NCBI RefSeq assembly: GCF_003334405.1 | Contig: NZ_QOWM01000051.1 | Direction: 5' to 3' (one strand) | Origin: Escherichia coli | GTDB taxonomy: Bacteria > Pseudomonadota > Gammaproteobacteria > Enterobacterales > Enterobacteriaceae | Length of the DNA: 895 nt | Part shown: piece after piece, positions 1 to 895 of the stretch | How positions within the stretch are numbered: position 1 is the stretch's first letter | Layout of the letters: the number at the start of each line of letters is the position of its first letter | Made by a program: the position numbers and the translations under genes | The notes under the pieces: generated by a model | Told to the model about the DNA's origin: nothing | Seen by the model: the letters and a program-made list of their open reading frames with translations, nothing else | Database searches by the model: none

Positions 1-895
1 TGCGGTCCGTCTTCTCCGTCAGCCTGCCGTATTCATCGTGGCGGTAGACATAGTGCGCATCCTCCGCGATGCGGTTATCCGGCCACACTGTGAGTGTACT
101 GTCCGGGTGCAGCTCCGGGTCCGGCAGCCGGTTGCCCGCCGGGTCCGTGGCATACGGGATGCGGATGTCCAGGTCTGGTGCGAGGGTGCGCACACTCTCC
201 AGCCTGCCCGTGGCGCTGTAGCCGTATTCCCGCGTCTGTCGCGGGCCGCTGATGCGCACCAGGTCGCCGTTGTCACTCCACCCGTAGTCACGGTCATATA
301 CCAGGCTGTTCAGGTGCTGGCTCTGTAACTGGCCTGCGGGGGTGTATGTGCTGGTCAGTTCGTATGCGGCATTACTGCCTGCCATGCTGCCGAAGCTGCG
401 CACCGTCTCACGGTGCAGCCTGTCCCGCGTATACTCGACCAGCGGCGTCCCGCCCAGCTTCATTCCCGCCAGGTAACCGCTGCCATACGTCAGCCACTCC
501 ACCGGCGGCAGGCTGTCCGGCGTGACGCGGTTTGCCAGCCCCTGCTCGTTGTATGCGTGTTTCGTCTCATGCTGCCACAGCAGTTCCCCCGTCTCCGGGT
601 TCTCCACCGTCTGGCATTCGCCGGTCAGGCGGCCTTTATCGTCATAGCCATAGTGGACGGCAACACGGTGGCCTTCGCTCAGGTGGCTGATGTCTGTCAG
701 CCAGCCGTGGCCATCATACTGCCACTGCTCTGCCGGTTCGCCGTTCACCGTGCGGTGAGTGATACGGTCCGATTCATCGTAGTACCAGAGGATGACAAGT
801 CCCTCATCCTCACTCTGTGTGAGTTTTCCGGTCAGGTCATAATGATAACGTTGCGTCCGCCCGTCAAAGCCGCCCTGCTGTACCAGCCGGTCCAG
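1..895 (-). CDS. rhs: Internal fragment, partial at both ends, of an Rhs-family YD-repeat core protein (polymorphic toxin, T6SS-associated or contact-dependent class). Complete codons occupy 2..895; position 1 is the first base of the next codon.
   Basis: Hand translation of the reverse complement starting at position 895 gives 298 codons with no stop: [298 protein letters not shown]. It contains repeated YD-repeat motifs (Y-x-Y-D-x-x-G-R/K-L-T) at roughly 20-25 residue spacing and is rich in Tyr (21), Asp (25), Gly and Trp (7), as expected for an Rhs/YD shell. From memory it closely matches the conserved E. coli-type Rhs core (rhsA/B/C/D family). The paralog cannot be assigned because the cores are near-identical and the distinguishing C-terminal tip is not in the window. 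No database search was run. Confidence 0.92.

Follow-up and report, generated by a model that had tools for sequence, protein, structure and literature searches.

The window, i.e., the whole stretch of 895 nt that was analysed, is an internal segment of the Escherichia coli gene rhsD, and its composition is extreme for this species. The anomaly is mostly synonymous, and it shows up in GC3 and dinucleotides but not in codon adaptation. The core of rhsD is foreign-looking in composition and probably off equilibrium. The long-established reading of a foreign origin is partly supported; an old acquisition of the family with a later intragenomic duplication agrees better with the evidence than a direct import of the locus. 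It must be kept in mind that an atypical composition alone never proves a transfer.

Identity, strand and protein family of the window

Over all 895 nt, the reverse complement matches rhsD of E. coli K-12 MG1655, and of many other strains, with 100% identity. The window covers codons 665-962 of this gene (1426-codon CDS in K-12), within the conserved YD-repeat core. In the K-12 locus (L001) it is found at 20001-20895 and the rhsD CDS at 18009-22289. There is no difference from K-12 RhsD (b0497; clade I, RhsD-E subfamily), of which the window is simply a part. The gene is read on the minus strand, a point on which the original prediction was silent: in the six-frame translation, the sole open frame starts from window base 895 on that strand and runs for 298 codons with zero stops. 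Of 5426 complete E. coli genomes, 3871 contain a match to the window, the median number of matching places being five per genome. It must be noticed that 12 of the 20,470 matching places are on plasmids.

The feature that spans the window (positions 1-895, minus strand) is identified as a part of the YD-repeat core of the Rhs beta-shell by the identity with rhsD, by RHS_core and by TIGR01643. The match to NCBIfam NF041261 RHS_core (651 bits, E=3.4e-195) covers model positions 669-965 of 1261; the 2000-bit cut-off of this model is made for whole proteins and is beyond the reach of a 298-aa fragment. The TIGR01643 YD repeat scores 22.8 bits (cut-off 15.8). Pfam RHS_repeat gives five matches, all weak (E-values 0.0017 to 2.1); residues 3-27, 19-52 and 60-92 of the window protein are among the segments matched. 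A regular-expression scan of the translation finds four [YWH]x[YF]D motifs, namely YHYD, WYYD, WQYD and YGYD, at residues 17, 37, 58 and 82, respectively (positions 596-844, minus strand). The recognition of an Rhs core, initially made on the letters of the DNA, is confirmed by the identity with rhsD and by the RHS_core match.

rhsD encodes an Rhs polymorphic toxin: its YD-repeat core builds a shell that encloses the variable toxin of the C-terminus. Among solved structures, other Rhs toxin shells come nearest: Pseudomonas aeruginosa Tse5 (8cp6, E=2.6e-23), then 8qja, Tse15 (8uxt), 7q97 and 8h8a. Tse5, Tse15, 7q97 and 8h8a are homologous to the window over the YD-repeat shell (E-values from 2.6e-23 to 8e-07), and this homology supports the idea that the window encodes part of the toxin-encapsulating beta-shell. 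These solved Rhs/T6SS effectors differ from the window in being distant in sequence and in coming from other genera; among the PDB relatives found, there is no solved structure of RhsD itself.

The plus strand contains a shadow frame at positions 2-895, antisense to the gene, with a single stop in 298 codons in the six-frame translation; it is not a gene. The plus-strand ORFs (41-96 aa) were rejected as genes in the same manner, all of them being antisense to the fully annotated rhsD CDS. Such antisense shadow frames arise because GC3 is high in the real gene. In the case of the rhs gene of E. albertii (L004), antisense ORFs reach up to 353 aa; shadow ORFs of this kind usually accompany a high GC3 and are a potential trap for gene callers. 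No RNA family of Rfam matches the window. No meaningful DNA repeat is contained in it, the YD repeats being without conservation at the DNA level.

Base composition and codon choice

The window has a GC content of 62.8%, with 58.3% in its first 60 bases and 65.0% in bases 61-120, in agreement with the partial counts of the original prediction (roughly 60%, about 58% and about 65%, respectively). GC1, GC2 and GC3 are 66.1, 45.0 and 77.5%, respectively. Values of 66/45/78% would be expected for a gene from a genome of about 60-62% GC (Muto-Osawa relationships). The most used codons are CTG (24 of 30 Leu), GGC (20 of 29 Gly), ACG (15 of 26 Thr) and CCG (13 of 15 Pro). The preference for G or C at third positions, which had been illustrated with these same four codons, is thus real. 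The 24 Arg codons of the frame are 10 CGC, 5 CGT, 5 CGG, 3 AGG and 1 CGA; the figures first given for the total and for CGG, AGG and CGA are exactly reproduced.

Some choices are besides odd even in a GC-rich gene. Ser is encoded by AGY in 16 of 17 cases (11 AGC and 5 AGT). For Ala, GCA is the commonest codon (7 of 15, versus 20% in the background described below). The main codon for Thr is ACG, not ACC.

Comparison with the host background

The host background amounted to 219 kb of K-12: the 34 kb flanking rhsD, a region of ribosomal-protein genes and three 50-kb regions taken arbitrarily. It has a GC content of 51.2%, with a GC1 of 57.8%, a GC2 of 40.7% and a GC3 of 56.0%. None of its 213,632 sliding windows of 895 nt reaches 62.8% GC, the maximum being 60.4%. 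None of the 166 long background ORFs reaches the values of the window either (maximum GC 58.4% versus 62.9%, maximum GC3 69.7% versus 77.5%), and the same is true of the 30 annotated flanking genes (maxima of 58.6% and 72.8%, respectively). The comparison of GC and GC3 with the host and with the flanking genes, which had been proposed as a check, thus places the window far outside both.

The Karlin dinucleotide signature is normalized for base composition. The corresponding delta* (x1000) is 198 for the window versus a background maximum of 190, and 135 for the 3.6-kb core versus a background mean of 51. The high Tyr content (7.0%) may contribute to this outlier, i.e., to the unusual TA value.

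It could be supposed that the protein drives the composition, in other words that YD repeats rich in Gly, Arg, Asp, Tyr and Thr, together with ordinary translational selection, are sufficient and that the history of the gene is not unusual. GC1 and GC2 are indeed somewhat over the background. The amino acid content alone lifts the expected GC from 51.2% to 54.9% when the same 298 aa are encoded with the background codon usage, and Tyr could feed the TA value as mentioned above. However, this same calculation gives an expected GC3 of 55.6% (SD 2.7 percentage points), and the observed GC3 is 8 SD above it. Roughly one third of the GC excess is due to amino acid content and two thirds to synonymous choice. 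Moreover, the preferred codons ACG, GAG, AGC, CGG and AGG differ from those of highly expressed genes, the reference set of which has a GC3 of 50.3%, and the codon adaptation index (CAI) of the window is merely average (see below). As a sole explanation, a protein-driven composition is effectively refuted and hardly deserves any credit.

Codon adaptation and rare Arg codons

The CAI was calculated with 30 ribosomal-protein and elongation-factor genes (5096 codons) as a reference. The window scores 0.425 and whole rhsD 0.345. The mean of the flanking genes is 0.416 (SD 0.081), i.e., z=0.1 for the window. On this index, which had also been suggested as a check, the window cannot be distinguished from the genes around it.

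The share of the rare codons (CGG, AGG and CGA) among Arg codons is 37.5% in the window (9 of 24), to be compared with 26.1% for ordinary ORFs of K-12, a difference with a binomial p of 0.15. Taken separately, AGG is marginal (p=0.044, uncorrected). In highly expressed genes, the same codons are almost absent (9 of 419). Their rarity in highly expressed enterobacterial genes, on which the original prediction insisted, is thus correct, but there is no significant enrichment in the window with reference to ordinary genes. Neither CAI nor rare-Arg counts were retained as marks of horizontal acquisition. This has a calibration value: the anomaly is extreme and mostly synonymous, and these two measures are poor discriminators here.

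The rhsD gene and its locus

The GC-rich stretch extends from the start of rhsD to PLQQIDPMGL (residues 1249-1258), a PxxxxDPxGL motif. In Rhs elements, this motif closes the core, ahead of the variable, AT-rich tip and of an immunity gene. The core has 63.3% GC and a GC3 of 75.4%, versus 36.5% and 17.8%, respectively, for the toxin tip. The composition remains low in ybbC, downstream of rhsD (30.6% GC), and through the downstream orphan fragments. The statement that the Rhs core is markedly richer in GC than its host is borne out by the window (62.8%) and by the core, both to be compared with the 51.2% of the background. A core GC of about 62% is reportedly given in the papers of Hill. It was Hill and co-workers who described the now classical combination of a GC-rich core and an AT-rich tip in Rhs elements; both this architecture and the inferred acquisition of the cores are known since the work of this laboratory in the 1990s, as summarized in PMC2935791.

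The occupancy of the site was estimated with a chimeric ybbP/mnmH query. Of the 5421 E. coli genomes, 1900 have these two genes next to each other, about 0.2-0.9 kb apart; the rhsD site is thus empty or nearly empty in about 35% of the genomes. At least one empty-site genome (H66) retains a DUF6531 relic, which indicates that at least some of the empty sites are deletions. In K-12, the ybbP-mnmH interval corresponds to L001 17578-24880. The short gap found in other genomes is often annotated as dinQ (type I toxin).

The strong form of the foreign-origin reading is that E. coli received rhsD recently and directly from a GC-rich organism that is only distantly related. The atypical composition, the presence/absence polymorphism at the site and the mosaic look of the locus (AT-rich tips and orphan fragments downstream) are all in its favour. 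Against it stand the closest relatives of the core, which are enterobacterial, with no credible match from a GC-rich genus, the presence of a syntenic clade I copy in E. albertii (both described in the next section) and the published reconstruction, in which position 6 was duplicated within E. coli to give this locus (PMC2935791). On balance, such a direct import appears very unlikely.

Two minor features of the gene and of its relatives deserve mention. The N-terminus of RhsD (MSGKPAARQGD...) contains a literal PAAR motif (L001 18009-18100) and is consistent with a PAAR-like T6SS spike-binding domain; K-12 is generally said to lack a T6SS. In E. coli S1 (H65), an orphan core fragment of 435 nt (query 386-820, 93% identity) is found in the rhsE neighbourhood and is annotated «hypothetical protein | arylamine N-acetyltransferase».

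Relatives of the core and search for a donor

The closest relatives of the window are copies from E. coli, Shigella and E. albertii, followed by those from Citrobacter, Yokenella, Salmonella and Lelliottia. Twelve further E. coli alleles or paralogues (79-97% identity) and the E. albertii copy all have a GC content of 61-64% and a GC3 of 76-80%. In other words, the GC3 of the E. coli core stays in this range over up to 21% nucleotide divergence. The cores of RhsA, RhsB and RhsC of E. coli and of the E. albertii Rhs share about 78-83% nucleotide identity with the window and are similar to it in their YD-repeat core, GC and GC3; they differ from it by their subfamily, their chromosomal sites and their C-terminal toxin tips. 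In E. albertii NBRC 107761 (L004), the clade I Rhs (ORF 1228-5502, GC3 79.5%) adjoins fadE/yafJ/lpcA. Its flanks are 92.4% identical to E. coli, and the site is syntenic with position 1 of Jackson et al.

The same trend is seen in other Enterobacteriaceae. In Citrobacter, Yokenella, Phytobacter, Trabulsiella, Lelliottia, Buttiauxella and Superficieibacter, the homologous segment has 55.6-66% GC versus 47-56% for its flanks; the core is above the flanks in every case, with a variable margin, so that the excess is a trait of the family at large. Some relatives have nearly the host composition, for instance Trabulsiella guamensis (55.6% versus 54.3%). With hosts that span only 47-56% GC, the comparison of cores with their hosts across genera could not tell amelioration apart from a fixed set-point. 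The Serratia marcescens Rhs core has 67.7% GC (PMC2935791).

In Citrobacter amalonaticus AUH_CA_2023_1, four Rhs core matches (L028-L031) are without an intact frame over the segment matched and a fifth one (L012) is intact. The former may be frameshifted pseudogenes or the result of indel errors in the assembly.

Donors were searched by means of homologous proteins and by a scan of genome contigs with a seven-sequence alignment. No GC-rich donor was found in these searches, and the credible relatives all belong to Enterobacteriaceae; the word and peptide patterns used are specific to close relatives, so that sensitivity is biased against distant donors. E. coli-like Rhs core fragments (77-96% aa identity) were encountered on very short contigs assigned to unrelated phyla. 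They come from metagenome-assembled genomes labelled Lentisphaerae, Akkermansia, Oscillospiraceae and Collinsella (L003, L005, L006 and L023) and from two actinomycetes, Frankia tisae (L026, 433 bp) and Streptomyces griseoloalbus (L032, 544 bp). A protein 96% identical to the window is named «Clostridium sp.» (P0007). None of these matches was considered as reflecting the real distribution of the family: they look like contamination or mis-binning, and in the case of the two actinomycetes contamination is most likely.

Substitution spectrum

Changes were polarized by parsimony among ten rhsD-type alleles, with more distant cores as a reference. Changes from G or C to A or T (48-59) are about twice as numerous as the reverse ones (24-32), with p=0.0007-0.018. 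The equilibrium GC implied over all sites is 45-50%. This net flux from GC to AT suggests that the rhsD core is above its equilibrium GC. In bacterial polymorphism generally, GC-to-AT changes are often in excess, and such an excess is not specific to amelioration. At third positions, the rates lead to an equilibrium GC3 of nearly 72% instead of 55%, in conflict with the all-site flux; this value relies on only 23-32 ancestral A/T sites and is prone to parsimony error.

These values bear on the question whether GC-richness is actively maintained in place, either by GC-biased gene conversion in the course of recombination among the several Rhs copies of a genome and between strains, or by selection at the DNA or RNA level on a long repeat-coding gene. 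Several observations point in this direction: (i) the family is multicopy, as indicated by the median of five places per genome; (ii) in all the enterobacterial genera sampled, core GC lies above that of the flanks, which an intrinsic force would explain equally well; (iii) GC3 is stable over the whole divergence observed in E. coli; (iv) the third-position equilibrium is itself high; (v) the Serratia marcescens core is GC-rich even for its host, the genome of which is about 59% GC. Conversely, the all-site flux toward AT is significant and leads to a low equilibrium GC, and the case of Trabulsiella guamensis resembles amelioration, not a fixed set-point. Maintenance in place is thus doubtful, while deserving consideration. 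The more definite proposal that the high GC3 of Rhs cores is not a fossil of transfer, being actively kept by GC-biased gene conversion or by selection on a multicopy, recombining toxin-shell gene, seems to us slightly less probable again.

Origin of the composition and of the locus

Clade I Rhs are older than E. coli, and Rhs cluster by genomic position (Jackson et al. 2009, PMC2935791). According to the same authors, the site of rhsD is position 3 (ybbA...ybbB) and it was derived from position 6 by a duplication within E. coli. The title of Wang et al. 1998, a work cited in PMC2935791, carries by itself an argument for divergence in a GC-rich context. The constancy of GC and GC3 among the E. 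coli and E. albertii cores, over identities of 79-100%, fits such a divergence.

An old acquisition followed by a duplication can be described as follows. The high GC (63%) and GC3 (75-78%) characterize the clade I Rhs core family as a whole, which most likely owes them to an ancestor whose evolution took place in, or was moulded by, surroundings of about 60-65% GC. We infer that this source was foreign and that it entered the Escherichia lineage before the speciation of E. coli. The rhsD copy would then have been made by duplication or transposition inside E. coli. It would have spread as an accessory element and may now be drifting slowly toward the host composition. Taken as a whole, i.e., a GC-rich clade I ancestor acquired before E. 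coli, a copy made within the species and a composition in decay, this explanation is rather probable in our opinion.

The «foreign origin» put forward in the original prediction is to be worded with more care. It is partly sustained by the atypical GC3 and dinucleotides and by the accessory nature of the site, the 2:1 flux from GC to AT being suggestive. On the other hand, no GC-rich donor was found in searches biased toward close relatives, the credible relatives are all enterobacterial and the locus itself has been published as a duplication. In other words, the family is old, GC-rich and anterior to E. coli, and the locus results from a duplication within the species.

A comparison with compositionally atypical genomic islands leads to a similar distinction. 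rhsD is like them in its atypical GC, GC3 and dinucleotides and in its presence or absence among strains. It differs from them in that the searches gave no donor and in its published origin, which is an intragenomic duplication. Moreover, most of the E. coli islands are AT-rich, whereas rhsD deviates to high GC.
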